Of a DNA stretch of 64,000 nt, positions 3,575-54,790 are shown piece after piece. The DNA lies in contig JAFYDR010000158.1 in NCBI GenBank assembly GCA_017544725.1, positions 615 through 64,614 on the forward strand, in the 5' to 3' direction. The stretch is from Kiritimatiellia bacterium. Lineage in GTDB: Bacteria > Verrucomicrobiota > Kiritimatiellia > RFP12 > UBA1067. The notes under the pieces were generated by a model. It was not told the DNA's origin. It did no database searches and saw only the letters and a program-made list of their open reading frames with translations. The stretch's first letter is position 1; every line of letters starts with the position of its first letter. The position numbers and the translations under genes were made by a program.

Positions 3575-4674
3575 ACTTGTCCTTTCGTTGATTTACGGAC
3601 CACCAACGTGGCCTCAAGGTTGATCTCGCGAGGAGGGAGCGCAGGATCGTAGATACGCTCCAACAGGGTACGTACCGCCACGGCGGCAATGGCCTCGCAG
3701 GGTTGCCGTATTGTCGTGAGCGGCGGCGAAAGCAGCTGTGCGCAGGAAACATCATCGAACCCGGCAAGCATCGTGTCTTGCGGCACCCGCTTTCCGATGT
3801 CGGTCAGCGTCTGAAGCAGACGCGCCGCCGTGCGGTCGTTGCCGCAGATGAAAGCATCCGGGGCCACACCCTTCCGAAAAAGACGGCGCACGGCATCGAC
3901 ATCGTCCGGAAAAGCGATGCAGACATTCGTGTCGCGCCACGGGATGCCCGCACCTCGCACCGCCATCGCAACGCCCTCGCAGCGCTGGAAGATCGTCGGT
4001 GCGGAGTGAGGCGGCATGAAGAAGCAGATGTGACGGGCACCTTGGGCGATGACGTGCGCCGCCAATGTGCGCCCTGCGCGGATGTTGTTGATACCCACCA
4101 GATCATACTGACTGCGCCCTTTGGCGGAAACGACATCGCGATCGAGCAACACGACCGGAATGTGATTTCCGTTGAGGATAGAAAGTATCTCGAGACTCAA
4201 CTCGGTGCTGTCCGGCAACAGTTCGATCGGTTCAAAGAAAACACCCGCCACGTGTCGGCTCGCGTAGTCCGCCGCAAGAGCCTGCGCCTGACGGACACGT
4301 TCGAGAGGATTGGACGAAGAGACATCGCCGAACAAGGTGGTATAGCCTGCTTCACGGCTGACACGCGCGATCTCCGCGCAGATAGGCGTGAAGATTTCCA
4401 CGTTGCGATGTCCGGGAACGATCAGCCCCAAACATCCCGTCGAGTTGCGGGCCATCGGACTTAGGTACGTGCCAGAACCCCGACGCCGCTCCACGAGGCC
4501 GTACTTCTGCAACTCCAGCATCACGCGGATCATCGTCGAGCGCGATGCATTGAATCGGCGCACCAACTGGTTCTCGCTGGGCAGTCGCAAGACATGGTCG
4601 TATTTTCCGGCGAGGATCTCACTCCTCAACATTCGGAAGATGTCCCTGTACTTGATGTTCGTATCGTCTGCCAT
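3571..4674 (-). CDS. Transcriptional regulator, GntR-type wHTH fused to a LacI/PBP1-type sugar-binding domain (AraR-like architecture)
   Basis: N-terminus IFRMLRSEILAGKY...LPSENQLVRRFNASRSTMIRVMLELQKYGLVERRRGSGTYL is a GntR wHTH. The remainder (LGLIVPG..., VVLLDRD, GFDD) looks like a periplasmic-binding-protein-type effector domain. It is first in the sugar operon. Confidence 0.85.
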   Translation of the reverse strand: MADDTNIKYRDIFRMLRSEILAGKYDHVLRLPSENQLVRRFNASRSTMIRVMLELQKYGLVERRRGSGTYLSPMARNSTGCLGLIVPGHRNVEIFTPICAEIARVSREAGYTTLFGDVSSSNPLERVRQAQALAADYASRHVAGVFFEPIELLPDSTELSLEILSILNGNHIPVVLLDRDVVSAKGRSQYDLVGINNIRAGRTLAAHVIAQGARHICFFMPPHSAPTIFQRCEGVAMAVRGAGIPWRDTNVCIAFPDDVDAVRRLFRKGVAPDAFICGNDRTAARLLQTLTDIGKRVPQDTMLAGFDDVSCAQLLSPPLTTIRQPCEAIAAVAVRTLLERIYDPALPPREINLEATLVVRKSTKGQV

Positions 4675-4693
4675 GCGAATCCCCGTACCCGAA

Positions 4694-6844
4694 TCACTTG
4701 CGCGGAGCGATGTCGAAGTGAAAGCAGTCGGCGTTGATGTGCCCGAAATGCCCGGTGCGGTTATCGACGATCACGATCGTCGCCTTCTTCCCCTTGAACT
4801 CGCCGACATCCCAATGCGTCCATTCCAGCCTCTCGGCGTTCTTGCCGGTCGCCGTGCGAACCGTCTTCCCGTCGATGACGAGGTTCACGCAAGTCTCGTC
4901 CTTGTAGTTGCCGCCTCCCACGAGGAAATTGATGAATGGCTTCTCGATCGTGAACGCGGGCGAGGTGAGCGTCCCCTTCGTCTCGTCTTTTCCGTAGTAG
5001 CTGTTGACGAGGTAGCGGCCGCTGTAGCCGTTCACGGGATTCTGGAAAGGCAGGATGCCGCGCGCGGGCCCGGGACCGAACGCCTCCCCTTCCGCCTTCC
5101 ACGCTTCGTACGTGCCGTTCTCGAAGTCCGCGAAGAGGACGGCGGTCTTCGGCAGGGCGACCTGCACAGGCGGCATATCGACCCGCACGGGGCGCCGGAC
5201 GGCGGCGGGATCCGCGCCGCGGTTCGCCTTCCCGCCCGGACGCATGTACCAGCAGGCGAGCGGCGCGAAATCGAGCTTGATGTCCTCCAGCCAGTGCCAC
5301 ATCTCCATGTGGAAGCGGATCGACTTCGTGAATGGGATCGCGTCGAGCGCGCGGTTGCGCACGTTCACCGCGTTGCGGCGCGCGAAGTCCTCGCGCAGCG
5401 GGCGCCCCTGCCCGATGCCGATCGGCTGCGCGATGAACGGATGGTCGAAGGGTTGCGGGCGGCACCAGGCGTACCCGTAGTAGTCCTCCGTGCCGGTCCC
5501 GATGTAGGAGGGCGTATTCTCCCCGTCGATGAAGACCTTTTCGTCGCCCTCGCCCCACCAGCGGGTGGCGGGCTGCCACAAGGCGAGCGTCGTACCCACG
5601 AACAGTCCCTCGCCCTCCAGCTCCGCGTAGTCGTAGTCGTACTGCGTCTTTTCCGCGCCCCTGCGCGACGGGGCGTCGGCGTACTCGTGCCAGCACGCGC
5701 CGAAGTGCATGCTGCGCGCGGGGTCCCACCTGTAGCCGCCAATCTCGAGCGCAGTCAGGCTGAGAGCCACGGGCTTCGCGGCGTAGTTGCGCACCGTCAC
5801 CGTGCACGTCTTCTCGAAGGGCATCGTCCAGCGGCTCTCCATGCGGCCCGCCCCCGTGCAGGAGGTGAACCAGCTCGAATACGGCTCGTAGGTGTAGCCG
5901 CACCCGAAGAACTCGCCCGCCGGAACCCACACCGTGCGCTCGCCGTCGAACGAGATCTCCAGCACGGTCGAGCGCAGGGCATTGGGGTCCTTGCCGCTCG
6001 CCACCGCCATCGCCAGGCGGCGGATCGCGCCGCCGCCCTCGCGCGTGACCGTCCGGACCACGGACTGCCCGGGGGGGATCTCGCCGTCGAAGGTCAGGAT
6101 CTCGCCCGGCGCCTTGTCCGCGCCGTTCAGGCGGCGGTCCAGCTTCCGGTTGGCGGCGTCAACCGCCGCCTTCTCGCGCCGCAACACCTCCAGCGAGAAG
6201 GACTCCACCTCCGTCCCCGCCGCGTACGCCCGCGTCTCCACGTTGTAGTAGAACGCCTCCCGCGCGGGCGGCTTGCCGCCCCCGCGCGGCTGCTTGGAAT
6301 AGAGCGTGGCGCTTTCATACGTCACCTTGCAGCTCTCCGCGTAGGGGATGGGGAGGTAGAGGTCGTGCCCGCGGTTCAGGTAGGGCGACTCTCGCGAGAC
6401 GGAGTCGGAGAGCGGCGCCCCGCACAGCGCGCCGCCGCTCAGGATTTTGAGGACCTCGCCCTCCACGGCGAGCTTCCCGTCGATGTAGATGCGCAGGATC
6501 CCCTTCCCGTCCGTCCGGGCGACCGTCACCCAGAAGCGCGTGATCACGCCGGGTCCTTTCGCGTCGAGCATCACCTGCTCGCGCCGTTCCCCCACCGTTT
6601 CCTCGCGGAGGAATTTGGAGGAGTCGCTGTTCGCGAACCATCCCTCCGTCCCCGGCTCCGTCGTCTTGCGGTCGTAGCTCGACCAAAGGCGCGCCGTATA
6701 GCGGGGCGAGGGAAGGTAGGTGTTGGCGTCGGGGTCGGTCATCTCCTCCAGCAGGGATTTCAGCGTCACCTTGCCGGACGCCGGCGCGGCGAGCGCCAGG
6801 AACGCCGCCGCCAGCGCGAGGGTTGAAACGAAAGTCGTCTTCAT
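4694..6844 (-). CDS. Secreted DUF2961 (GH172-like) protein with C-terminal lectin-like beta-sandwich
   Basis: Signal peptide MKTTFVSTLALAAAFLALAAPASG. DUF2961-type motifs SSYDRKT, GPGVITRFWVT, ILRIYIDG, GTGTEDYYGYAW. The C-terminal ~150 aa (FENGTYEAWKAEGEAFGPGP...VNSYYGKDETKGTLTSPAF...FLVGGG...GHINADCFHF) resembles the accessory beta-sandwich seen on fructan/GH32-type hydrolases. Confidence 0.75.
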   Translation of the reverse strand: MKTTFVSTLALAAAFLALAAPASGKVTLKSLLEEMTDPDANTYLPSPRYTARLWSSYDRKTTEPGTEGWFANSDSSKFLREETVGERREQVMLDAKGPGVITRFWVTVARTDGKGILRIYIDGKLAVEGEVLKILSGGALCGAPLSDSVSRESPYLNRGHDLYLPIPYAESCKVTYESATLYSKQPRGGGKPPAREAFYYNVETRAYAAGTEVESFSLEVLRREKAAVDAANRKLDRRLNGADKAPGEILTFDGEIPPGQSVVRTVTREGGGAIRRLAMAVASGKDPNALRSTVLEISFDGERTVWVPAGEFFGCGYTYEPYSSWFTSCTGAGRMESRWTMPFEKTCTVTVRNYAAKPVALSLTALEIGGYRWDPARSMHFGACWHEYADAPSRRGAEKTQYDYDYAELEGEGLFVGTTLALWQPATRWWGEGDEKVFIDGENTPSYIGTGTEDYYGYAWCRPQPFDHPFIAQPIGIGQGRPLREDFARRNAVNVRNRALDAIPFTKSIRFHMEMWHWLEDIKLDFAPLACWYMRPGGKANRGADPAAVRRPVRVDMPPVQVALPKTAVLFADFENGTYEAWKAEGEAFGPGPARGILPFQNPVNGYSGRYLVNSYYGKDETKGTLTSPAFTIEKPFINFLVGGGNYKDETCVNLVIDGKTVRTATGKNAERLEWTHWDVGEFKGKKATIVIVDNRTGHFGHINADCFHFDIAPRK

Positions 6845-6877
6845 GTCTTTTCTTCCTTTGTTGGGTTTGCAGATTCG

Positions 6878-9800
6878 TTACTTGATCATGATGACCATGC
6901 CGGGGGGGAACGCCTTCGCGCGGAAGTCCGCCCCATCGATCCAGAATGTCGAGAGCGCCCCGTTCGGAAGCGGGCTGACGTTCCATCCCGCCAGACGCTC
7001 CGCCGTCCCGGCGGCGTACCCGCCGGCCGCCGTGAAGGGCGTCCACACAGTCGGAAGCGCGGAGATCGCGCTTTCGGGCCGGAGCGTTCCGGTCCCCTCC
7101 ACGGAGATCCGCCCAGTCACCGCCATCGTGCGCCCTCTCTCGGCCCGCACGACCGCGCCGTCCTGGAGCGTCAGGTCGCCCGTGAACGCGCCGCCCGCGC
7201 CGAGCGTGCCGCCGAACGACAGTTCGCTGCCGAGCGGGGCCAGCGTGCCGTTCGCCGCCACGTTCACCGTCACGTTCGTGTCCGCGCCCGCGCCGGTTCC
7301 GAACCCGTACCGGACGTACGAGAGGACCTCGTTCGTGGAGAGCGCCCGGTTCCAGATCGTCACCTCGTCCATCCACCCCTTGAAGAAGGGGTTGTTGAAG
7401 GCACCGGAGATGTAGAACCTCTTCCTGCGGATGTCCGGTCTCGTTTCCAGCGTGCGGGGCGAGTTGTTCGGGTTCTTCAGCGCGGGCGCCGTCTCCTCTC
7501 CGTCGATCCAGTAGCGCATGACCGTGCCGTCCCAGGTCTGCACCACGCTGTGCCAGCCCGTGCGGAACTTCTTCGTCCGGGTGGCGTCCTCGGGCAGCAG
7601 ATATTCGTAAGTCCCGACGTTCGGGTAGTTCCACAGGCGGGATTGCCAATCATAAAAGGCGTACCCGTTCATGGTCATCGGCACGTTTCTCGGGTCATCG
7701 CCGTAGTAGATCAGCCCCATGTTGGTGTAGTCGGGGGCCGATCCGGTGTTGGATGGATACTTGTCCGCGCGGCGGAAGAAGAATCCGAGCGTGAACGGCG
7801 CGTCGCCTAGCGGGATCATCTCCGGCTGCGTCAGCCCGTCGTCGTTGTAGCCCGCGAGCACGAGGTTGTTCGTGCCGTCGAAATACGCGGCGCCGCCGCC
7901 GTGCGCCCATTCGCCCTCGCCGGTGGCGCACTCCACCTTCGTGCCGCCCGTCGGGAACTTGGTGTTCTTCGTACCTTCCGTCAGCGTATAGCCGTAGGGA
8001 CCGGCATCCTGGTAGAGCGTCTCCGGCGTATCGAAATGGTAGCAGAGGACGATCCCGTTCGTGAGGCCGGCGGTGAACGCGGCGTCCGCCAGTGCCACCG
8101 TTCCCTCCGCCACCTCCAGCGTCGCGGGCTGCGGCTCGACCGGCCCGTCCGTATTCACGCCGTTCTCCATGTACTCGGCGATCTCTTCGGGCGAGAGCGC
8201 GCGATTCCACATCGCCACCTCGTCCAGCCATCCGGAAAGGTACATGTTGTTGTATCCGGTGCCGATCCAGAATCGCGTCGGGGAGAGGTTCGGCATCGTC
8301 CCTTTCGTGCGCGTGGAGTTTGCTGTTCGATGCGTCAACGGAGCCTCCACCCCGTCGATGTAGATGCGGTAGAGGCTGCCGTCCCAGACCTGCACCGCGC
8401 AGTGCCACCCGCCGGCGAAAGTCGAGGTGCCGTCCGTCGGCGACGCCAGCTCTTCGTTCATGTTGCCCCAGAAGTAGCTGAAAAGATGCGCGGAACGGTC
8501 CCACACGACCAGTCCCAGGCCGTTCCCGTTGCTCGCGTTTCCGAGGAAGCTCAGGCCGCGATTGTCATTCTGTTTCCCGTCGCGGATCTTGAACCACTGC
8601 GCAAGGGTGAACGGATCGCCGTTGCGCGGCGCCCTCTCCGGATAGCCGCCGGGATAGGAGAGGAACACGTGTTCGGAGAAGGACGCCGAACCGGTACCGT
8701 ACCGTCCCTCGTTCGCGTCGAAGACGACCGGCCCATTGGAGGCGTCCGCCTTGAACGCCCCGTTCGTCCAGCAGTTCTCCAGCGTGTAGCCGTACGGGCC
8801 GGAGTCCTGTAGCAGCGTCTCCGCCGAATCGAAGTGGTAGCAGCAGACCAGCCCGTCGGCGAGCGAGGCGCGTCCTGCCGCCAGTCCGCCCTCCAGCGAC
8901 GCACCGCCCGCGCCCGTCTTGACCGTCACGCCGCCCGCGAGCGTCGCGCCCACGCTGCCCGCCGCGAGGTGGTTCGTCGTCCCGGCGAGCGTGCCGTTCC
9001 GCACGGTCCCGCCCGCGAGCGTCAGTTCCGTGCAGCGGTAGGAGTTGCCGCCCAAGTCGAGCGTCGCGCCCGCGCGCACCACCACCTGGCTAGCGATGGT
9101 CGTCTGCGGCCCGGTCAGCTTCAGCGTCCCCGCCGCCACGTCGAGCGTGCCGGAGATCTCGAATGCGCGTTGGAGAACGAGCAGTTCGGTGCCTTCCTTC
9201 ACGAAGTCGAACGGGCCCGCCATGCTCACGTTGGATCCCGCGTTATCCTTGGTCTGCGCGATCCGCAGACTCCCCTTGGCGTTCTCGTTCGAATTGCGGA
9301 TCAGCTGCCCCGCGTCATACGTCTGCTGGTCGTTGTTCAGGAAACTCTGCGACGTGCCGCTCAGGTCGAAAAAGCCGCGTCTGGCCGTCCGCCCGTTCCG
9401 TCCGGTGAGGTAGGCGGCGGTAAACACCTCGTCCGTGCCGCATACGATGGTCCCGCCCTGCGTCGGCATCGGACAGGTGATGTTCTGGTTGGGAACCATG
9501 AACTTCACCCCCGTGTTGTTGCCGTCCGGCCAAAGCGTGTGGAGATTCCGGAAACGCCCCGTGACGAAGATGCGGGGTGCGTAGTGGTCGCTTACGTCCT
9601 GCAAGACGAAGTAGAGGCCGCCGATGCAGGTGATATCCCCGCCGAGCGTCAGCGAGCTGGTGGCGTTCGCCACGCGCAGGAAGCTGTTCCAGACGTACAT
9701 CGGCCCGTTCAGCGCGACGGTCCCGTACGAGACGATGCGAGGCCCGTTGTTGAGCGGTGTCTCGGTCCCCAGCCGGATCTCGTTCGCCGCCGTCACCGTG

Positions 9801-16453: not shown

Positions 16454-16680
16454 TTGGCGGCTAGCCGCCAATGAAAAGCTGAGAGGCGGGGAAGCTGAGA
16501 AGCAAGCCGCCGAAGGCGGCAATGAAGAATGAAAAGAAGGCAGTAGGCAATAGGGAGTAGGCAGTAGCGACGGCGGGTGCTTCGCGTCAGTCTCGCCAGT
16601 CCAACGCGGACTGTCGCATGACGCTTGTCGCGTGTCATCGGTAGCTGTCGATTGCAATCGAATGCAATCGGACGGGGATA
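16454..16680. repeat. Composite intergenic word-repeat element (type 1)
   Basis: Order of parts: palindrome TTGGCGGC-ta-GCCGCCAA (16454-16471, 9 nt after the stop); gctgaga words; GCCGCC-gaa-GGCGGC; aatgaagaatgaaaagaagg; gcagtaggcaatagggagtaggcagtag; cagtctcgccagtcc; gtcgc words; caatcgaatgcaatcgg; acgggga. The same part order occurs at 56477-56640 and 63868-64000. Confidence 0.8.
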
Positions 16681-16947: not shown

Positions 16948-16977
16948 TTGCATGGTAAGATCGTACTGTTGTATAAT
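16948..16977 (+). promoter_or_regulatory. Putative sigma-70 promoter TTGCAT-18-TATAAT
   Basis: -35 at 16948-16953 and a perfect -10 at 16972-16977, 100 nt upstream of the sigma-factor ATG at 17077. Confidence 0.4.
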
Positions 16978-17076: not shown

Positions 17077-17820
17077 ATGAGGTTTCTAAATCAACAGCCT
17101 TTCAAAGTCAGCGGGAAGGGAATTTCTTTTTCTTTTGATGACGCGTTCGTAGATCGGCTCTTGCGGAAAGATCCGCAAATTACCAATGACTTCTTCGCAT
17201 TCATCTACCAGCTCTTGGATGCCCTCCAACCCAAGTTTAAGAGTGCCAATTCCGGATGGCGGGATGAAAATTTCGAATACCTCTGCAATCGGTTCATCGA
17301 CAGATTGACTCGGATCTTGAATAATCCATTGGAATCTGATATCAAAAATTTCAATGCTATGTGCGGGAAGCAACTCGCGTACAGTATCAGGGACGAGTAT
17401 CGTTTCATGACGGCTAAGGAACGAGACATCAGAAGGGAAAAGGCTGGGAATGCTTCGTCTTCTTTGGACGAAGACAGCACATGCGAGATCTTCGATATGA
17501 TTTCGACGGAGATATTGACCGCTCCTAGGCGTGCCGACGGTGAACCACCCTTGCGTCCAGATGCTTCTGTGTACGAAACCTATTCCGAACACCAAAAGTT
17601 TTTAGATTCCATCGAACGGGAAGACAAAATCGAAGAGGTTAAGAAAATCCTTGCGGCCATTCAAGATGATCAAGATCGGAAAATCATTCAACTTTGGATG
17701 CGCCGCATACCGGGGAAAGAGATTTCCGACATCATGAAGATGAAGGAAGGAACCGTGGCCAGTATCATCAACCGAACGATCCAAAAATTGAAGAAAACTT
17801 TTTGCAAAAAGGTAGGATGA
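17077..17820 (+). CDS. Divergent sigma-70 family (ECF-like) RNA polymerase sigma factor
   Basis: The C-terminus DRKIIQLWMRRIPGKEISDIMKMKEGTVASIINRTIQKLKK is a clear region-4 HTH. The N-terminal helical part is region-2-like but divergent. AGGAGG RBS; lower GC than the flank. Confidence 0.7.
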   Translation: MRFLNQQPFKVSGKGISFSFDDAFVDRLLRKDPQITNDFFAFIYQLLDALQPKFKSANSGWRDENFEYLCNRFIDRLTRILNNPLESDIKNFNAMCGKQLAYSIRDEYRFMTAKERDIRREKAGNASSSLDEDSTCEIFDMISTEILTAPRRADGEPPLRPDASVYETYSEHQKFLDSIEREDKIEEVKKILAAIQDDQDRKIIQLWMRRIPGKEISDIMKMKEGTVASIINRTIQKLKKTFCKKVG

Positions 17821-17851
17821 TTTTTCGTCAATGTGTGTGGAGGTGATTGTC

Positions 17852-18451
17852 ATGAAATCAAACCAAGCAAATTTCAACGAGTTTTTACAGAGTGTGACGT
17901 CGGATCTTCCTCCGATGCGTCCGCTCCCCGAAATCCGGGAACTGTACCGTTCCCAGATTGCCACTGCCTGCAACCGCTATCTGACAGGATACGAAACGCA
18001 TCCAGCGGTGGTATCTGAGACGAGTCCAGACCTGGTCGTATCCCTGAAACAGTTTTTGCAGGACGGCATAGACCTGATCCGTACCTTTGCGAAAGCCGTA
18101 GTCCAACCCCCTCAGCCCGCACTGTGTGGCGGCATGATGACACGCGGGTTTGGCGGCACATCCGACAAAACCCGGTCCGTGCAGAAACAACCTTTCTCGA
18201 TTCGTGTCAAACTGTCCAAGGGAAAAAACGGAATCGACGTATCCATCAGCCCGATTGTAGCTCAAAGTGAACTGGAACTTTTCCCCTTCCTTCTGACGGT
18301 AATCGACCTTGACAACGGAAAAACCCTACTGGACAAAAAAGAATTTTCGCGCGGCGCAGCTATTTTACGCGGCGTAGAGATGGGGAATTATCGGATACTC
18401 GTAAGTCATGACGAGAAAACAGAATCCCTTGACTTGAAAGTCGAAGAATAA
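17852..18451 (+). CDS. Hypothetical protein (position suggests an anti-sigma/partner); C-terminal beta-sandwich-like
   Basis: ATG at 17852 preceded by GGAGGTGA. 199 aa with no TM. The C-terminal FSIRVKLSKGKNGIDVSISP...GNYRILVSHDEKTESLDLKVEE looks like an Ig/carboxypeptidase-regulatory-type domain. Confidence 0.5.
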   Translation: MKSNQANFNEFLQSVTSDLPPMRPLPEIRELYRSQIATACNRYLTGYETHPAVVSETSPDLVVSLKQFLQDGIDLIRTFAKAVVQPPQPALCGGMMTRGFGGTSDKTRSVQKQPFSIRVKLSKGKNGIDVSISPIVAQSELELFPFLLTVIDLDNGKTLLDKKEFSRGAAILRGVEMGNYRILVSHDEKTESLDLKVEE

Positions 18452-18462
18452 AGGAATAAAAA

Positions 18463-18978
18463 ATGGACGAAAAATACATTCACAACCTTTCCGAAACGGA
18501 ATTTATTACGCCGGAACTGAAAACATGGTTTCAGGAAAACTGGATTGAGACACTGGAAGAAGCGGTGTCGGCACTGGCAGCGATGCCCGTCGAATTTTTG
18601 GGGAAAGAAGAGTTCCTGAAGCAAGCCAAAGAGACGCTAGGGGAGGAAAAGTTTCAAGAGCTCTCGACCGCGCTTCCACCGCATGCAAAAGGTCTGTGGA
18701 TGCCAACGGAACACGTACCCAAAAATCCGTCTGGCGAAAAGGAACCGGAGGCTACACAGGACGAAACAGAAAACGACACGGGGAACAACAGAGCGAATGC
18801 CGAAATGCCTTCCGCAAATCCAGCGGTGACACCGTCCGTAGAAACACAACCGTGTGAAACGAATAACCACAACGCGCCCACAGAGGACAAGGCGCAAGAT
18901 TCCACAACCAAAACTATTCATGAGGTATGCAAAACTTCCGCAGCCGATGGAGAAAACCATGATCAATCTCAGCAATAA
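18463..18978 (+). CDS. Hypothetical acidic protein sharing an N-terminal helical module with the next gene
   Basis: 171 aa. LSETEFITPELKTWFQENWIETLEEAVSALAA parallels LTDEQIQTLKSLWIETVEELFGCALAL of the C1 peptidase. The C-terminal half is low-complexity. Confidence 0.5.
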   Translation: MDEKYIHNLSETEFITPELKTWFQENWIETLEEAVSALAAMPVEFLGKEEFLKQAKETLGEEKFQELSTALPPHAKGLWMPTEHVPKNPSGEKEPEATQDETENDTGNNRANAEMPSANPAVTPSVETQPCETNNHNAPTEDKAQDSTTKTIHEVCKTSAADGENHDQSQQ

Positions 18979-21526
18979 TCGAACTCCGTTAACCGCCATC
19001 TCGTCACTCACCGATGAGCAAATCCAGACCCTAAAATCCCTGTGGATCGAAACGGTAGAAGAACTGTTTGGATGTGCGTTGGCTCTACAGGACAATAAAA
19101 CATCCGTCCCCGCCTTCAACTTGATTCCGAATCTGGAAAAAATTCAGAATGCGCTCCCGACGGACGCCCTTCAATCCATTCAGGCGACCAAGGTCGGAAC
19201 CTACGAGAGGGGGCTTGCATACCCACCGGCGATCCGCCAGACCCTCCTTCAGGCGTACTGCCGAAAATTCAGTCAGAATCGCCAGTCCCCAAATCTCGTT
19301 TCCCTGACCGCTTCCGATCAGCCTCTCGATCTGCCCAGCGAAGTGAATCTCGTGGATCAATTCCCCCCCGTGCGAAATCAGTTTAAGCGAGGCACCTGTA
19401 CGGCTTTCGCCGGTTCAGCCCTCTGCGAGTTTCTCGAACGAGAAAACGAGATTCGGTTTTCTCCCCAGTTCCTTTACTGGTGCTGCAAAAATCGCGACGG
19501 TTACCCGAACGAAGGTGGCACCTCTCTGTCCACCGTCCAGGAGGCTTTACTGGAGGATGGAATTTGCCCAGAAGAAGACTGGCCGTATTACCCGAATCCT
19601 ATCTTTGACACGAACGGCTTGAGTTTGGAAGGACAAGGTCCCGCCCCGAAACAGGCGATCGAACATGCAAAAAAATATCGCTATACCTGCCGCAGTCTTA
19701 CACGGGGTTCTGTTACGCAGTACAAACGGATTTTGGCATCCGGTTACCCGATCGTGATCGGTGTCCTGACATACGCCAGCTGGGAAAGAAGCCGGATGAC
19801 GCATCTTTTCGGGAAACTCACCATGCCGTTCGTCTGGCTGGACGAAGAGGAGAATGTACACGCAGAAGAGCCGTCCGGCGCTCACGCCATGTGCCTCGTC
19901 GGATACCTTGACAACAAATCCGTTCCGGGCGGTGGATATTTCATCGCACGGAACAGCTGGGGCAAGGAGTGGGCTTCCCTCTCTAAAGTCGCCGCAGGGC
20001 ATGCCTTGATTCCTTATGCCTATATCTCCGCGTTCTGCCTTGAGGCGTTTTCGATTCTAGACACTTCGGTTATTCCGCCTTCTGACGAGGACGAGGAAGA
20101 CGATGAGAGCGAATACCCGAATGTCGGGCGAGAGTCCATCCACACGAAACCTCTTCCTGCGGATATGCCCGTCTATCTCCGCCCGTATGCCAGGTACCTC
20201 GACAAAGAATCCCGAGACTCGGAAGGTCGTCTCTTGCCCGCCGGCACGTGTGTACTTTCCCGTCCGGAAGCGGGAAGTCCGATCTTTCCCTACACACCGA
20301 CCTGTTCCCTCAAGAAAGAGTATCGCGAACTCCTGCACAGAATCCGTTTCGGGGCAGTTCCAACCAAGTTACGCGATTCCATCCTGGCGCATCGACGTAA
20401 CTTTTGTTCCAAGCTCGACAACAACCTGACTGCGGCGGAAGGACACGCATTCCCTGAAACGTGTTTCTCCCTTGTGCTTCTCCAAACCCCGTGGCGGGTT
20501 AAAGTGAAGAAGTCGCAAGTTGTCGCGGACTTCTCTGCCGAGTTGCTGGAAGTACTGCTGTCGGATGTCGATTCAGGTCAAAAGCTGGGCGACCCTCCTG
20601 CCGACTGGAAGAAAACGTGGCTGGAAACCATATCCGCCAAAATCAGGAAATGCTTGGCGTTCACGCCAGTTCCGCCCTTCTTCACGCCCTCCGTGTACGT
20701 GGTGGAGGTCTTTGCGACACCGTTCACTATCGACCAGCGAACAGGTGCCTACACGGCGGTTGCCCCGTCCGAACACTTTGTTGAGCTGGTCCAATCCTGT
20801 GCGCGTGAAATTCTGAAGAAACAGCCTTCCGGCCAATTCGTTTTTTACTCGATCGCTTCCAGTCTCCCCTGGGACGGGGTTTCCGCCTCGCAACACAGAA
20901 GCGGATCGGAAAGCGTCGTGGTGAGCACTCCGAACGATACCGGGGAATGGAATGTTCAGATGCCGACCTATCTGACCGGAAGAACGACATTCCGCAATTT
21001 CCAAGATCGTTTGTTGCCGATCACGCATGAAGAACTGGTGTCCGCAGTCAAGTTCTATGTCGATGAGAACATCAAAAACGGCGGCGTAGTGAAAGTGGAT
21101 GAAGTGGTCGAAGATCTGCATACACGCTCCAGCAGCCCGTATCGGGATTTCCCTCGCTTTCGGAAAACGGCCATTCTCCGCGCCTTCATCCGGATCGCGG
21201 CGAATGACCCTGCCAAATACGCAGTATGCAGAGACCGTAAATCCAAGAACGACATTTATATTCTCCCAAAAGATTCCGTGAATCAGAATGACAAGCTCTA
21301 TCGTCCCGCAACGGGTTTCTATCGTTTCATGCAGCGTCACCTGATCGGATTGCTGTTCTGCGTTCCCGGTGTGTTGCTGTGGTTCTGCAAGGATTGGTTG
21401 ATGGATTACTTCGGAATCAAGCGGTACGGATCTATCGCGACACTTGCCTTGTCTGTCGTCTTTGTCTATCTTGGCATTCTGTTACAGAATTTCATCAACC
21501 GAATTCGAACCATCGAACTGGAGTAA
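18959..21526 (+). CDS. Papain-like (C1 family) cysteine peptidase, C-terminally membrane-anchored, no signal peptide
   Basis: PPVRNQFKRGTCTAFAGSALCEF (Gln oxyanion plus catalytic Cys region), GAHAMCLVGYLDN (His), FIARNSWGKEWA (Asn/Trp). About 450 aa of unknown sequence follow, then two TM helices (LIGLLFCVPGVLLWF; IATLALSVVFVYLGILL). ATG at 18959 follows GGAGAA; the track start is 18854. Confidence 0.75.
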   Translation: MINLSNNRTPLTAISSLTDEQIQTLKSLWIETVEELFGCALALQDNKTSVPAFNLIPNLEKIQNALPTDALQSIQATKVGTYERGLAYPPAIRQTLLQAYCRKFSQNRQSPNLVSLTASDQPLDLPSEVNLVDQFPPVRNQFKRGTCTAFAGSALCEFLERENEIRFSPQFLYWCCKNRDGYPNEGGTSLSTVQEALLEDGICPEEDWPYYPNPIFDTNGLSLEGQGPAPKQAIEHAKKYRYTCRSLTRGSVTQYKRILASGYPIVIGVLTYASWERSRMTHLFGKLTMPFVWLDEEENVHAEEPSGAHAMCLVGYLDNKSVPGGGYFIARNSWGKEWASLSKVAAGHALIPYAYISAFCLEAFSILDTSVIPPSDEDEEDDESEYPNVGRESIHTKPLPADMPVYLRPYARYLDKESRDSEGRLLPAGTCVLSRPEAGSPIFPYTPTCSLKKEYRELLHRIRFGAVPTKLRDSILAHRRNFCSKLDNNLTAAEGHAFPETCFSLVLLQTPWRVKVKKSQVVADFSAELLEVLLSDVDSGQKLGDPPADWKKTWLETISAKIRKCLAFTPVPPFFTPSVYVVEVFATPFTIDQRTGAYTAVAPSEHFVELVQSCAREILKKQPSGQFVFYSIASSLPWDGVSASQHRSGSESVVVSTPNDTGEWNVQMPTYLTGRTTFRNFQDRLLPITHEELVSAVKFYVDENIKNGGVVKVDEVVEDLHTRSSSPYRDFPRFRKTAILRAFIRIAANDPAKYAVCRDRKSKNDIYILPKDSVNQNDKLYRPATGFYRFMQRHLIGLLFCVPGVLLWFCKDWLMDYFGIKRYGSIATLALSVVFVYLGILLQNFINRIRTIELE

Positions 21527-21530
21527 AATT

Positions 21531-23159
21531 ATGAATAAAGAAGCAATTTCATCTGCCATCACTATCATTCGCAAACTACCGCCCATCCCGGGGGGAATCT
21601 TCCACTCGGCCAAATGTCCTAAAATCGACGACCATCAAGAGGATGCCCTCGGTCTCTTTGCTTCGGGCATTCGCAAGTTACTAACCGAGGACGATCGGAA
21701 TCAGGCAGTCCGACAGAACATTCAGGTCTTGGCTGTCACCAAACGGGAACTTCCTCCGTTTCGGATGGAAGTCGCAAAAGTTTGCGAGGAGGACGGTCAT
21801 GTGTGGAATTACCTGCTCTTCGGTTCGGTTTCCATTCTCGACGGAGCGAAGTTGATCCAAACTTTTCTGGAGACGAACAAGCAGTCTCTTCTTAGCAATG
21901 GAATTGACACCCATCGCCTTTTCTCGTATATCGAATCGATCCTAGGACCGAGCATCCGTGATGAGATTGCGCAGACTCGTCAGGACTTCAAATACCATAT
22001 CGCCGATATCGAAAAAAAGGACGTCTGCCCCGTCCTGTTCTGGAACCGGATGTTGAACGAGAAACTGGCGGGAACAGGACTCCATCTGGAGATTTCGGAA
22101 ACCACATTCTGTAGTCCCGACGCCGAACTGGAACAGCAACAGCTGAAAGCGAAGGAAGCCGAACGGAAACTATTGGAACAGGAACGCCGCGAATTTCAAC
22201 ATGAACTTGAAAAAGTATCCCAACAGTCTGAACTGGAAGAGGCGAAACGGCGGCACCAAGAGGCAAAAGAAAAATTCGAGTTGGAACAGGCCGAACGGAA
22301 CGAGCTCCTGAAGAAGAAAGAGATCGACTTGAAGATCTATGAACTCAAAGAAATGGAGAAGGCGAAACTCGAAATGGAAAAGGCCCGTAACGATGCGGAT
22401 ATCCAGAAAACGGGACGTCTTGAGGAGATTACGAAACGCTTCGAGGCCGCATGCAAACAGATCGATACGCTCGTGTCTTCTTTGGAAAAGCTGGGTGTCT
22501 CCAAAGACGAAGTGGCGCAGCGTCCCGATCCCTCCGTGTCGCTATATCCCGACACATTCTACCACCAAACGAAAGACCTCTTCGGAGATACGCTGGATTG
22601 GATTCGGGAACAGGGAACCGGGGCGCTCTCCATGTCTTGGGATGTCATCCGCAGTGGAAACGCATACGGAACACGCGATCTGATACCCGCCTCCAGAAGA
22701 GATGGCAATCCGAACAAAAAAGGAATCCTGCGGATCGGAGACCGGACTACGCTTCGCCTCATCTCCGAAAAAGCTGGGTATCTGACTCTCTTCAACTTCG
22801 GGACAAGCGGTATCATCTCCAAAATCTTCCCCTCTCCGGAATTCGGAACGACGGACAACCGAATCGTCGCACATCACGAATACACCCTCCCCGGAGAATT
22901 GATGCCGGCGCGGAAGGGAGACAGCGGATGGTGGACTGTGGGAGGCCCCGTCTCTGACCAGAACAAATTACCGGAACGGGTCATCGCCATTCTAACGGAA
23001 ACCCCGGTTACCCTCTCCGAATCCAGTTTTACAGGAGAGACAAAAACCACGCTCTGCCGCGGCGGTTTTGCGGCCGTGGAAGAAACCATCTCCACGCTCG
23101 CCGACCTGCCGCCCGGAAGCTGGTGCTTCGGTATGTTGGAAGCCTGGATTCAAAATTAA
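21531..23159 (+). CDS. Coiled-coil protein with C-terminal DUF4384-like beta domain
   Basis: ATG at 21531, 4 nt after the upstream stop, with GGAG upstream. About 130 aa of E/K/Q-rich coiled coil (ELEQQQLKAKEAERKLLEQERREF...). The C-terminus ILRIGDRTTLRLISEKAGYLTLFNFGTSGIISKIFPSPEF...HEYTLPGE...RVIAILTETP matches DUF4384 as I remember it. Confidence 0.65.
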   Translation: MNKEAISSAITIIRKLPPIPGGIFHSAKCPKIDDHQEDALGLFASGIRKLLTEDDRNQAVRQNIQVLAVTKRELPPFRMEVAKVCEEDGHVWNYLLFGSVSILDGAKLIQTFLETNKQSLLSNGIDTHRLFSYIESILGPSIRDEIAQTRQDFKYHIADIEKKDVCPVLFWNRMLNEKLAGTGLHLEISETTFCSPDAELEQQQLKAKEAERKLLEQERREFQHELEKVSQQSELEEAKRRHQEAKEKFELEQAERNELLKKKEIDLKIYELKEMEKAKLEMEKARNDADIQKTGRLEEITKRFEAACKQIDTLVSSLEKLGVSKDEVAQRPDPSVSLYPDTFYHQTKDLFGDTLDWIREQGTGALSMSWDVIRSGNAYGTRDLIPASRRDGNPNKKGILRIGDRTTLRLISEKAGYLTLFNFGTSGIISKIFPSPEFGTTDNRIVAHHEYTLPGELMPARKGDSGWWTVGGPVSDQNKLPERVIAILTETPVTLSESSFTGETKTTLCRGGFAAVEETISTLADLPPGSWCFGMLEAWIQN

Positions 23160-23186
23160 CGAAGAAACCACGGAAAGGAAAAAGAA

Positions 23187-23447
23187 ATGAAACTCATCAG
23201 CAAACTCATCACCATTGCGCTCCTCGCCCTTGCCGGAACATGGGCATCTGGATTCGTTCGCGGATTCTTGCAGTTTAACGGGAAAAGCCGTGGCGTCCTA
23301 GACACGGTTTCCATCTCCACCGACTACGAGACGCGCGAGAAGAATTTCTTCTCGGATCTGCATTGGCACGGATACCTCACATACGTCCAATACTGCACGA
23401 ACAAAAGTATTCCGTTGCAGGCAATGGAACAACTATTCAAACACTAA
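23187..23447 (+). CDS. Small membrane/exported protein, 86 aa
   Basis: N-terminal TM/signal MKLISKLITIALLALAGTWASG, purine-rich RBS, last gene of the plus-strand operon. Confidence 0.45.
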   Translation: MKLISKLITIALLALAGTWASGFVRGFLQFNGKSRGVLDTVSISTDYETREKNFFSDLHWHGYLTYVQYCTNKSIPLQAMEQLFKH

Positions 23448-25878: not shown

Positions 25879-25907
25879 AGCATACTAAACTTTTGCGTTT
25901 TCAGCAA
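25879..25907 (-). promoter_or_regulatory. Putative promoter TTGCTG-17-TATGCT in the conserved leader of paralog 1
   Basis: Minus-strand -35 at 25902-25907 and -10 at 25879-25884. It lies within a ~70-nt block conserved upstream of three caspase-FGS genes. Confidence 0.35.
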
Positions 25908-26010
25908 AGAAAAACGGAGGGGCGCTCCGCGTACTCTGCGACCTCAGCGGCTCTGCGTGAGAACCCAAACGCGGAATCTGGGCTTAACACGCTTAACCGG
26001 CCAACTTGCC

Positions 26011-33700: not shown

Positions 33701-33729
33701 AGCATACTAAACTTTTGCATTTTCCGCAA
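33701..33729 (-). promoter_or_regulatory. Putative promoter TTGCGG-17-TATGCT in the conserved leader of paralog 2
   Basis: Minus-strand -35 at 33724-33729 and -10 at 33701-33706; GAGGAG RBS before the ATG at 33667. Confidence 0.35.
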
Positions 33730-33849
33730 AGAAAAACGGATGGGGAGGCAATAGCGGGAGGGGCGCGCTCCGTCGCGACCGCGTGAACTTATCTCACGCA
33801 GTGATTCGCTGAGGCCGCAGAGAGATGAGCCGCCTTCACGCCAGCTCGT

Positions 33850-54585: not shown

Positions 54586-54614
54586 AGAATACCAAACTCT
54601 TGCATTTCCCGCAA
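54586..54614 (-). promoter_or_regulatory. Putative promoter TTGCGG-17-TATTCT in the conserved leader of paralog 5
   Basis: Minus-strand -35 at 54609-54614 and -10 at 54586-54591; AAGGAG RBS before the ATG at 54553. Confidence 0.35.
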
Positions 54615-54654
54615 AGAAAATCGAGCTTTGCCCAGCTCCAAGCAGGAGCAGGGG

Positions 54655-54790
54655 TGGCGAATGAAAAGGTTAAAAGGTTAAATCGCCACTACGCGGCTTG
54701 AAATTGACAGTACGATCCATTGAAAGGGCGTAGCCCGATTTAATGCAGTCGAAAACTGCGATTTAACCATTTCATTGCCGACTTCGCCGC
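54655..54790. repeat. Intergenic repeat block including a 35-nt copy of the 63868-63902 element
   Basis: 54672-54706 aaaaggttaaatcgccactacgcggcttgaaattg versus 63868-63902 aaaaggttaaatcgccgctttgcggcttgaaattg (32/35). Also contains the aaaaggtta duplication and atttaa-type inverted words. Confidence 0.75.

Follow-up and report, generated by a model that had tools for sequence, protein, structure and literature searches.

The six-gene operon at positions 17077-23447 of a 64,000-nucleotide stretch of DNA from a Kiritimatiellia bacterium (assembly GCA_017544725.1, contig JAFYDR010000158.1, positions 615-64,614; the whole stretch is hereafter called the window) is probably the head, regulatory and proteolytic in function, of an accessory envelope conflict system that resembles ESCRT (the endosomal sorting complex that is required for transport). 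Snf7/ESCRT-III-like proteins, Vps4-like AAA proteins and caspases would make up the other half of this system. The source genome is metagenome-assembled and 75% complete. The relevant features of the window are as follows:

16948-16977, plus strand: putative housekeeping-type promoter, with TTGCAT (-35) at 16948-16953, an 18-nt spacer and TATAAT (-10) at 16972-16977
17077-17820, plus strand: g1, divergent σ factor resembling the extracytoplasmic function (ECF) type, 247 aa
17852-18451 (alternative start 17831), plus strand: g2, anti-σ-like partner, 199 aa
18463-18978, plus strand: g3, small acidic protein of 171 aa consisting of an N-module (WIETLEE) and a low-complexity acidic tail
18947-21526 (alternative start 18959), plus strand: g4, papain-family (C1) peptidase, predicted to be tail-anchored, 859 aa
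21531-23159, plus strand: g5, coiled-coil DUF4384 protein, 542 aa
23187-23447, plus strand: g6, protein of 86 aa with an N-terminal signal peptide or transmembrane segment
42809-49982, minus strand: displaced block, defined by gene order and Pfam matches

The assignment of the operon to a larger system is based on the arrangement of these genes in relatives. In loci L002/L003, L005 and L088, whose C1 peptidases are 33-42% identical to g4, the genes for the σ factor, g2, g3, the C1 peptidase and the DUF4384 protein are followed on the same strand by genes for a four-transmembrane protein (about 300 aa), a Snf7-like protein (about 200 aa), an AAA protein, two further Snf7-like proteins (about 220 and 200 aa), a second AAA protein and a caspase. 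The products of this second half are 40-76% identical to those encoded on the minus strand of the window from 49982 to 42809, where a 298-aa four-transmembrane protein (u298) is followed by a 204-aa Snf7-like protein, a 411-aa Vps4-like AAA protein, a 241-aa protein that is likewise Snf7-like (u241), a 201-aa Snf7-like protein (u201), a second AAA protein (425 aa, Vps4_C) and a caspase (572 aa). Pfam yields AAA and Vps4_C matches in this block, and its Snf7 matches are sub-threshold. In the closest relative locus, L087, whose C1 protein is 78% identical to g4, the genes are divided up just as in the window, and in both cases the two halves are about 19 kb apart, with additional genes for caspases, GTPases and others between them. 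Because the genes are contiguous in the other relatives, we conclude that the window and L087 each carry one ancestral operon that has come apart into two convergent units. The order of the head genes is kept in the independent loci L087, L002/L003, L005 and L088 at 33-78% protein identity, and this conservation is far beyond chance. The σ factor, C1 peptidase and DUF4384 trio, which an initial annotation of the window had singled out from its letters alone, is thus syntenic elsewhere, and since in relatives the same genes run directly into the Snf7-like/Vps4-like/caspase block, the operon does not represent a separate system.

Homologues of g4 amount to about 45 full-length proteins and 80 genome loci. 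The 23 loci with a full-length homologue belong to Verrucomicrobiota, Phycisphaerae, Victivallales, Hydrogenedentota, Kapaibacterium and Anaerolineales. An ORF (open reading frame) resembling g3 is located directly 5' of the C1 gene in 21 of them, a Vps4-like AAA gene lies within the fetched flanks of 14, and most of the remaining ones carry a u201-family (Snf7-like) gene directly downstream. Pfam Snf7 scores above its cut-off in L004 and sub-threshold in L118; a precomputed match in L089 is marked weak. Locus L103 represents a variant contiguous form with σ factor and g2 genes and a C1 peptidase fused to a subtilase, followed by u241-like, u201-like and AAA genes. Minimal modules are also found, comprising σ factor, g2 and DUF4384 protein (L102) or σ factor, g2 and caspase (L104). 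A shorter family, consisting of N-module and C1 domain only and accompanied by a g3-like gene, is widespread and extends to Thermoplasmata. Vps4-like genes are absent from its vicinity, where other peptidases are often encoded. A full-length g4 is present in one of the 301 species of the class, namely the one under study, and in none of four further species in its genus. The system is therefore accessory and horizontally scattered.

A related arrangement is present in another genome of the same genus (G303, C297:12000-27000; locus L118). Genes for a Pkinase-Sel1 protein (1255 aa), a Zn-ribbon and Band_7/SPFH protein (597 aa) and an FHA protein are succeeded there by those for a Snf7 protein (193 aa, E 4e-5), a Vps4-like AAA protein (369 aa) and a 302-aa protein; a C1 peptidase and a σ factor are lacking. 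This suggests that bacterial SPFH-Snf7-Vps4-like systems form a family in which the sensor and effector heads (kinase or protease) can be exchanged.

Several neighbouring genes and sequences of the relatives deserve mention. N-module C1 peptidases are coupled with a second peptidase in L103 (fusion to an S8 subtilase, 4390-8097), in a Thermoplasmata archaeon (adjacent S8 peptidase, L024, 9980-14166) and in a Chloroflexia genome (adjoining C25, gingipain-like peptidase, L034, 8423-11131), which hints at protease cascades. In L005 (3535-7322), a gene for an FtsH-like protein with AAA and Peptidase_M41 domains (971 aa) and one for a 291-aa protein with no Pfam match lie directly 5' of the σ factor gene on the same strand, so that the FtsH-like gene is located two genes upstream of the latter, an arrangement of interest given the SPFH-FtsH precedent discussed below. 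Upstream of the σ factor operon in L002 (5960-7160), short word repeats (ggcaacattggcaaca..., ctagaagggctag...) and duplicated blocks of about 400 bp are present. The repeats resemble those at 16454-16680 of the window and may mark island borders in this group.

The six plus-strand ORFs fill the region from 17077 to 23447 with intergenic gaps of 31, 11, -32, 4 and 27 nt, so that the tight packing of the genes reported in the initial annotation (gaps of at most 31 nt) is borne out by the ORF coordinates. Also present is the TTGCAT-18-TATAAT sequence upstream of g1 which it had named as the promoter. A consensus promoter scanner did not report this site because its -35 hexamer agrees with TTGACA at three of six positions. 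Nevertheless, both hexamers and their flanking bases are kept in the upstream region of L087, where GCTTGCATG, TTGTATAATGG and GTTATGGGGG form the conserved blocks of an otherwise diverged alignment, while the spacer differs. The site is thus likely to be a housekeeping-type promoter. An AGGAGG ribosome-binding site is found 8 nt 5' of the g1 ATG. With 51.1% guanine plus cytosine (GC) (44.9% in g1), the operon is below the genome mean of 55.6% and at the 2.8th percentile among genome windows of the same size. The lower GC content noted earlier is therefore real, but the contrast with a flank of about 65% was overstated: the flank (1-10.9 kb, 64.1% GC) is itself well above the genome mean, and its atypical composition makes it a poor baseline.

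The product of g1 appears to be a very divergent, ECF-like σ factor whose region 2 is visible at the profile level only. It matches TIGR02937 (sigma70-ECF) over residues 88-240 (E 1.1e-9; 38.1 bits, cut-off 42.9) and Pfam Sigma70_r4 over residues 198-240 (E 6.4e-4; 19.6 bits, cut-off 24.1), and 28 NCBIfam σ factor models match at residues of about 170-243. Among the 13 σ-like matches of its own genome it ranks tenth. The match to TIGR02937 begins at model position 49 in g1, compared with matches to model positions 12-165 and 31-165 in the orthologues from L002 and L005 (E 2e-9 and 2e-10, respectively). When a profile of five members of the g1 family was compared with eight ECF σ factors of the same genome, hhalign gave an alignment over the full length with a probability of 88.5% (E 2.7e-6, query positions 8-217). 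An insertion of about 50 aa separates the σ2-like region of g1 from its σ4 region; a segment of the form F..(M/L)C..L..SI.D.YR looks, by eye, like region 2.3-2.4, and the σ factor genes in L103 and L104 give weak Pfam Sigma70_r2 matches.

No family match was obtained for g2 in Pfam, NCBIfam or PADLOC, and an exhaustive profile search of 1.84e9 representative proteins revealed a family of just 35 cluster representatives. A gene of this family directly follows an ECF-like σ factor gene in eight of eight contexts (the window, L087, L002/L003, L005, L088, L102, L103 and L104). Moreover, the metagenomic protein P0081 (399 aa) joins an N-half of the g2 type to a σ factor C-half of the g1 type (Sigma70_r4_2, 31.9 bits, above cut-off; hhalign to the g1 family, probability 86%). 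A C...HxxxCxxC motif of the zinc anti-σ (ZAS) type is kept in two members of the family only, P0068 (C3...H28xxxC32xxC35) and P0071. Based on these associations, g2 is best described as the cognate anti-σ-type partner of g1. It is composed of a helical N-half and a beta-rich, beta-sandwich-like C-half, for which a weak match to an SdrD B-repeat was found (E 3e-4). The start methionine, R98 and G178 are the only residues invariant in 23 of 23 family sequences. Of these, R98 is part of the motif [YF]-A-T-R-[GAS]-x-G at the junction of the two halves, which is followed by an indel-rich linker.

Two side observations concern this family. In order to act, a covalent anti-σ/σ protein such as P0081 would itself depend on being cleaved or on switching its conformation. 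In addition, residues 94-101 of g2 (18131-18154) and 377-385 of g5 (22659-22685) both carry [YF]-[AG]-T-R with an invariant arginine, in each case where the N-terminal part meets a beta-rich C-terminal domain and in or beside an indel-rich linker. These are possible shared protease recognition sites, the motif being too short for statistics.

The features of g4 are given with their residue numbers:

18968-19096, plus strand: N-module (residues about 8-50)
19325-20062, plus strand: peptidase domain (residues 127-372)
19379, 19397, 19883 and 19952, plus strand: catalytic residues Gln145, Cys151, His313 and Asn336, respectively
21341-21400 and 21425-21499, plus strand: transmembrane helices by hydropathy (residues 799-818 and 827-851)

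The match to Pfam Peptidase_C1 (PF00112) reaches 41.1 bits (cut-off 20.7), and no other Pfam family scores above its cut-off on g4. In 24 aligned homologues Q145, C151, N336 and W338 are invariant, and H313 is kept in 23. The two hydrophobic helices at the C-terminus are conserved, and none is found at the N-terminus. Because a signal peptide is lacking and two C-terminal transmembrane helices are present, the active site is predicted to be cytoplasmic at the inner membrane, and g4 is thus a predicted tail-anchored, cytoplasm-facing papain-family peptidase with an intact catalytic set. The absence of an Inhibitor_I29 match in Pfam and of a signal peptide distinguishes it from a typical secreted or lysosomal C1A zymogen. 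In the AlphaFold2 model (mean predicted local distance difference test score, pLDDT, of 80), a disordered linker (residues 113-126) separates the N-module from the peptidase domain, and the roughly 400 aa between peptidase and anchor fold confidently. The best Foldseek matches are xylellain (3ois, E 7e-16) and Lpg2622 (PDB 6a0n, E 4e-12), followed by cathepsins; template modelling scores are 0.70-0.78 to mature cathepsins and papain and 0.50-0.58 to pro-forms. The middle region (400-790) matched no PDB sequence when searched as a profile. Two ORFs of about 500 aa in other genomes of the class (G049, C44:12216-13097; G095, C25:27604-28533) match only the middle and C-terminal region of g4 (profile positions of about 435-755) and are devoid of the peptidase domain. 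Since these peptidase-less ORFs match it alone, the middle region appears to be an independent mobile module.

A hidden Markov model (HMM) of the N-module, built from the N-termini of the 24 C1 homologues only, matches g3 with an E-value of 6.5e-8 and finds no other match in the six-frame translation of the window; as judged by this profile, g3 is shown to be a stand-alone copy of the N-terminal module of g4. Neither g3 nor the N-terminus of g4 gives a Pfam match at E-values up to 0.1, and no homology to a described effector-associated domain (EAD) or Death-like family was detected. We also considered the helix-hairpin-helix of the RNA polymerase alpha-subunit C-terminal domain, whose register fits the N-module by eye; this candidate was dismissed with an hhalign probability of 0.2%, and PF03118 finds nothing in the genome.

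For g5, the following parts can be distinguished:

21531-22115, plus strand: predicted SPFH/flotillin-like N-domain (residues 1-195; AlphaFold2 and Foldseek)
22116-22520, plus strand: long coiled coil (residues 196-330)
22521-22727, plus strand: disordered linker with invariant T-R-D-L (R382)
from 22728, plus strand: DUF4384 C-domain

The C-domain matches Pfam DUF4384 (PF14326) over residues 400-492 with 34.9 bits (cut-off 27), all orthologues are annotated with PF14326, and a stand-alone DUF4384 protein of 171 aa in L102 is 44% identical to residues 400-531. The AlphaFold2 model shows an alpha/beta N-domain (pLDDT about 90), a continuous helix from 196 to 287, a linker (331-409) below 50 and a poorly modelled C-domain. 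When this model was used in Foldseek, 12 of 12 top PDB matches were SPFH proteins (flotillin, stomatin, HflK/C; E 1e-3 to 1e-1). The best of them is flotillin 9l3g (E 1.2e-3, probability 0.99); among the matches is also 7wi3 (HflK/C-FtsH), and isolated stomatin SPFH domains reach template modelling scores of 0.54-0.59. Membership in the SPFH family at the sequence level was rejected in that residues 1-200 give no Band_7 (PF01145) match at E-values up to 1. Contextual support for the SPFH-like fold comes from L118, because there a true SPFH protein occupies the position of g5. Taken together, the model assigns the N-domain of g5 with medium confidence to an SPFH/flotillin-like type, at the level of fold only. 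The last gene, g6, has a homologue only in the close relative L087 and is lineage-specific; elsewhere a gene for a u298-type (four-transmembrane) membrane protein directly follows g5.

The initial annotation fared well with respect to individual proteins. Its domain calls (σ region 4, Peptidase_C1, DUF4384) are right by HMM, if below cut-off in the case of the σ factor, and similarity to σ region 2, on which it had left room for doubt, is detectable with profiles. The helical module that it saw in both g3 and g4 is recovered by the HMM, hydropathy agrees with its C1 peptidase having C-terminal transmembrane anchors and no signal peptide, and the catalytic residues are intact in a proper alignment. 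What it observed in this operon holds, but it missed the anti-σ-like character of g2, the SPFH-like N-domain of g5 and the fact that the g3-C1 pair is a widely conserved core.

Potential targets of the σ factor were sought in the adjacent 30-kb array. Three near-identical leaders on the minus strand (25887-25911, 33709-33733 and 54594-54618) are located just upstream of three caspase-FGS genes and share the consensus TTCTTTGCnGrAAAyGCAArAGTTT(A/G)GTAT(G/T)CTTTTCCGTCA(A/G)AG. Within each of them, a TTTGC-N7-GCAAA palindrome overlaps TAGTAT, which may be a -10 element. No further copies exist in the whole genome, and the leaders are absent from all fetched relatives. They look like a locally duplicated promoter/operator, for which the HTH_25 domain of a 714-aa caspase is a candidate regulator. 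As copies are confined to this contig and missing in relatives, we found no evidence for the proposed link between them and the σ factor. An exact 11-mer, GATCGTACTGT, occurs at 16959-16969 (plus strand, spacer of the g1 promoter) and at 54707-54717 (minus strand, intergenic, at the head of the 30-kb array), and none of 100 shuffles gave three one-mismatch matches. Since the 11-mer is part of a non-conserved spacer and absent from L087 and all other loci, it was discarded as a shared σ-dependent promoter, and its sharing is probably due to chance.

We found no prior description of this gene combination in the literature searched or among PADLOC and NCBIfam models. PADLOC, its CRISPR effector models included, gave no meaningful match for the ten island proteins scanned. 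Each part is of a known kind, i.e., an ECF σ/anti-σ pair, a papain-family peptidase, an SPFH-like scaffold and DUF4384. The novelty lies in the joining of these parts to a bacterial ESCRT-like core, in the rare family of g2, in the N-module that g3 and g4 share, and in a C1 peptidase of tail-anchored, cytoplasmic topology. According to two recent reviews, bacteria have neither Vps4-type ATPases nor ESCRT systems (PMC10936438, PMC7619361). Surveys of conflict systems (PMC7159879, PMC8195603) leave Snf7, Vps4 and DUF4384 unmentioned and treat papain-fold peptidases only in other contexts; in one of them, Kaur et al. noted ECF σ factor genes beside caspase (EACC2) conflict systems and suggested that they provide a transcriptional output (PMC8195603). 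In type III-E CRISPR systems, the Csx29 protease cuts Csx30, which binds RpoE in an RpoE-Csx30-Csx31 complex, and some Csx30 C-terminal domains are DUF4384 (bioRxiv 10.1101/2022.08.17.504292). The operon resembles this Craspase arrangement in that an ECF σ factor is encoded beside a small partner, a two-domain protein of about 550 aa whose linker is flexible, and a dedicated cysteine protease, in the occurrence of DUF4384, and in the logic of a protease-gated σ/anti-σ switch. By contrast, the proteases here belong to the C1 and C14 families and not to the TPR-CHAT type, and the module sits with ESCRT-III-like and Vps4-like genes.

SPFH proteins are known to scaffold membrane proteases, with HflK/C-FtsH and stomatin-NfeD/STOPP as examples. 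The operon is similar to these pairs because the gene for a membrane-anchored protease lies beside that for an SPFH-type coiled-coil scaffold able to cage or gate the protease. It differs from them in that g4 is of the papain family and has a C-terminal hairpin anchor, the scaffold g5 has no transmembrane segment, and no sequence homology was found. In Bacillus subtilis, the cytosolic SPFH protein YdjI/SamI is recruited by membrane proteins and itself recruits the ESCRT-III homologue PspA (PMC8581546, PMC13713150). The pspA-ydjGHI (samGHI) operon shares with our relatives the order of an SPFH-like coiled-coil protein (g5) followed by a multi-transmembrane protein and ESCRT-III-superfamily proteins, and G303 of the same genus has a true Zn-ribbon-Band_7 protein in the g5 position. 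Yet g5 is SPFH-like by predicted fold only and carries a C-terminal DUF4384, its partners are Snf7-type proteins and Vps4-like ATPases rather than PspA, and the operon includes a protease and a σ factor. Archaeal ESCRT loci carry SPFH and coiled-coil proteins as well (PMC10936438).

Likeness to other systems is confined to single components. The g1-g2 pair recalls ZAS pairs in that the σ factor gene precedes the partner gene, C...HxxxCxxC occurs in two members, a σ-partner fusion exists and caspases are encoded nearby; on the other hand, g1 is very divergent, and g2 belongs to a family of 35 clusters, is soluble, has a C-terminal beta-sandwich, and has lost its zinc ligands in most members. 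MIT-domain enzymes such as calpain-7, AMSH and Vps4 are recruited to ESCRT-III in eukaryotes. Since g4, a cysteine protease of clan CA, has a helical module at its N-terminus and is encoded with ESCRT-III-like and Vps4-like proteins, it is comparable to them, the likeness being one of functional analogy only. With xylellain (3ois) and Lpg2622 (6a0n) it has in common the papain fold with Gln-Cys-His-Asn but differs by its N-module, about 400 additional residues, the C-terminal transmembrane hairpin, the lack of a signal peptide and its predicted cytoplasmic location. Finally, a small N-terminal domain common to the effector g4 and a second protein, g3, is reminiscent of EAD and Death-like adaptors (PMC7159879).

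Taking into account these data and precedents, we propose the following mechanism. The SPFH-like protein g5 would act as a membrane-proximal scaffold which, together with the four-transmembrane protein, places Snf7-like polymers as YdjI/SamI and YdjG/H do for PspA. It might also confine the tail-anchored protease g4 in the way HflK/C does for FtsH. The N-module would dock g4 onto a partner, and g3 may compete for or mask the docking site. A signal sensed by caspase-FGS/LysM proteins could set off proteolysis, upon which the protease would cut the anti-σ factor g2 after the invariant Arg98 and/or the g5 linker at R382. Candidates for the cutting protease are an Arg/Lys-specific island caspase and g4. 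Cleavage might then release the σ factor and thereby raise expression of the system, analogous to the cutting of Csx30 by Csx29 to release RpoE; that the signal flows from protease to anti-σ cleavage is inferred.

ECF σ factors are usually freed through proteolysis of their anti-σ factors, as exemplified by σE-RseA-DegS/RseP. Because of such anti-σ proteolysis, the Csx29-Csx30 precedent and the cleavage after basic residues that is described for prokaryotic caspase homologues (orthocaspases; PMC6426788), Arg98 of g2 and T-R-D-L of g5 are regarded as candidate cleavage sites. In its most far-reaching form, the proposal amounts to a full control layer for bacterial ESCRT-III/Vps4, comprising an ESCRT-directed, tail-anchored papain-type protease on a new adaptor module with g3 as a decoy, a flotillin-like DUF4384 scaffold, and a new family of caspase-cleavable anti-σ factors cut after an invariant arginine. 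It is tempting to speculate along these lines, even if the complete scheme is unlikely to hold.

A number of observations weigh against the interpretation of the operon as the head of an ESCRT-like system with a protease-gated σ factor. All σ factor matches of g1 score under curated cut-offs, and per-column confidence is low in the σ2 (N-half) part of the hhalign alignment of its family. The HxxxCxxC zinc motif is missing from g2 of the window, where the aligned position reads LPPMR, and Pfam zf-HC2 gives no score even on the motif-bearing P0068 and P0071. The operon promoter is housekeeping-type in look rather than ECF-autoregulated, and no promoter motif tying the σ factor to the array was found. 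Outside one clade of g4 loci and L103, the σ factor and g2 were undetected in more distant full-length loci, and for this reason they are considered a clade-specific add-on. With regard to g5, the model has an overall pLDDT of 63 and is a single one based on a seven-sequence alignment, the Foldseek E-values to SPFH proteins are modest, and hhalign gave a probability of less than 1% with 12 SPFH proteins of this and related genomes as well as with the Band_7 protein of L118. Hydropathy reveals no hydrophobic segment and hence no membrane anchor in g5, which consequently would need a membrane partner as cytosolic SamI/YdjI does. Lastly, PDB sequence and profile searches revealed no homology of g2 or g5 to Csx30 or Csx31, nor did Foldseek with the g5 model, and NCBIfam and PADLOC models of these proteins were not hit.

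The initial annotation had offered two readings of the operon. According to one of them it is a self-regulated accessory module and possibly a second protease-based conflict system. The operon would then be independent of the ESCRT-like/caspase array and merely its neighbour in an island where defence systems are stacked. We consider this very unlikely. In the window and in L087 the operon is a transcription unit of its own that runs convergently and has a separate promoter, minimal modules without Snf7 and Vps4 genes are seen on the short contigs available for L102 and L104, and N-module C1 peptidases with g3-like partners of Anaerolineae, Thermoplasmata and others have no Vps4-like gene within 10 kb and are often beside S8 or C25 peptidases, all of which would fit an independent existence. 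What speaks against it is that the genes are contiguous and translationally close-packed with the Snf7-like/Vps4-like block in L002/L003, L005, L088 and, as a variant, L103, that a Vps4-like AAA protein is encoded in the fetched flanks of 14 of the 23 full-length loci, and that a u201-family gene directly follows g4 in many distant loci. Furthermore, a full-length g4 is absent from all four other species of the genus, one of which has the related SPFH-Snf7-Vps4-like locus, so that an ESCRT-like core exists there without g4. The self-contained system postulated earlier is thus not supported. The other reading, a dedicated controller of the adjacent array, came closer to the truth in linking the operon to the array, but both are parts of the same system and the operon is not its controller only.

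Two further alternatives concern the function of the system as a whole and of its protease. The whole system might be a pathway for envelope stress, membrane repair and protein quality control instead of serving against invaders or in abortive infection. The σ/anti-σ pair would then sense damage, scaffold and protease would work like HflK/C-FtsH, and ESCRT-III-like polymers and Vps4 would reseal the membrane. A housekeeping counterpart exists for each part (σE-RseA proteolysis, HflK/C-FtsH, PspA-YdjI; PMC8581546, PMC13713150, PMC7619361), in L005 the FtsH-like AAA-M41 gene is two genes upstream of the σ factor gene, and none of ten proteins tested matches a PADLOC defence model. Against it stand the extremely patchy distribution of full-length g4 (one of 301 species of the class, none of four in the genus), an operon GC content under the genome mean, and the abundance in the island of caspase-FGS fusions and DO-GTPases, which are typical of conflict systems dependent on nucleoside triphosphates (PMC7159879). 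On balance, such an envelope-stress pathway is unlikely. Concerning the protease, g3 and the N-region of g4 might form a pro-region/inhibitor pair. The N-module would then block the active site of the C1 domain in the manner of a cathepsin propeptide, and g3 would act in trans as a propeptide-like inhibitor by which the cytoplasmic protease is kept silent. The N-terminal region of xylellain covers the active site, and the best structural matches of g4 include xylellain and several pro-cathepsins, the aligned stretches exceeding the mature enzyme in length. Moreover, g3 consists of module and acidic tail only, and a cytoplasmic papain-type protease presumably needs tight inhibition. Arguing against this are the scores to pro-forms (0.50-0.58), which are lower than those to mature enzymes (0.70-0.78) and come without a clear superposition of the N-region on the propeptide, the lack of a Pfam Inhibitor_I29 match, and the disordered linker 113-126 between N-module and peptidase domain. 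On the whole, we consider an inhibitory pair unlikely.

The interpretation of the operon as head of an ESCRT-like envelope conflict system has several implications. Further genes can be placed with the Snf7-like/Vps4-like machine, with which they are conserved, namely those for the cytoplasm-facing, membrane-anchored protease g4, the adaptor-only protein g3 and the SPFH-like/DUF4384 scaffold g5. One clade adds a dedicated σ/anti-σ pair, in which the anti-σ factor represents a previously undescribed and very rare family. Should the proposed mechanism prove wrong, annotation would still benefit from the synteny map and from the families newly recognised here (g2, N-module, middle region of g4). 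The system also provides a second, CRISPR-independent setting in which genes for a DUF4384 protein and for cysteine proteases accompany that for an ECF σ factor, and this association may help to explain the output of type III-E CRISPR systems. If the full control layer were true, sensing of the envelope or of invaders by caspases would lead to membrane remodelling and a transcriptional burst, and the system would combine a bacterial counterpart of the MIT-domain proteases on ESCRT-III with that of the Craspase-RpoE switch. In any case, the regulation of an ESCRT-like polymer system outside archaea and eukaryotes is thereby opened to study.

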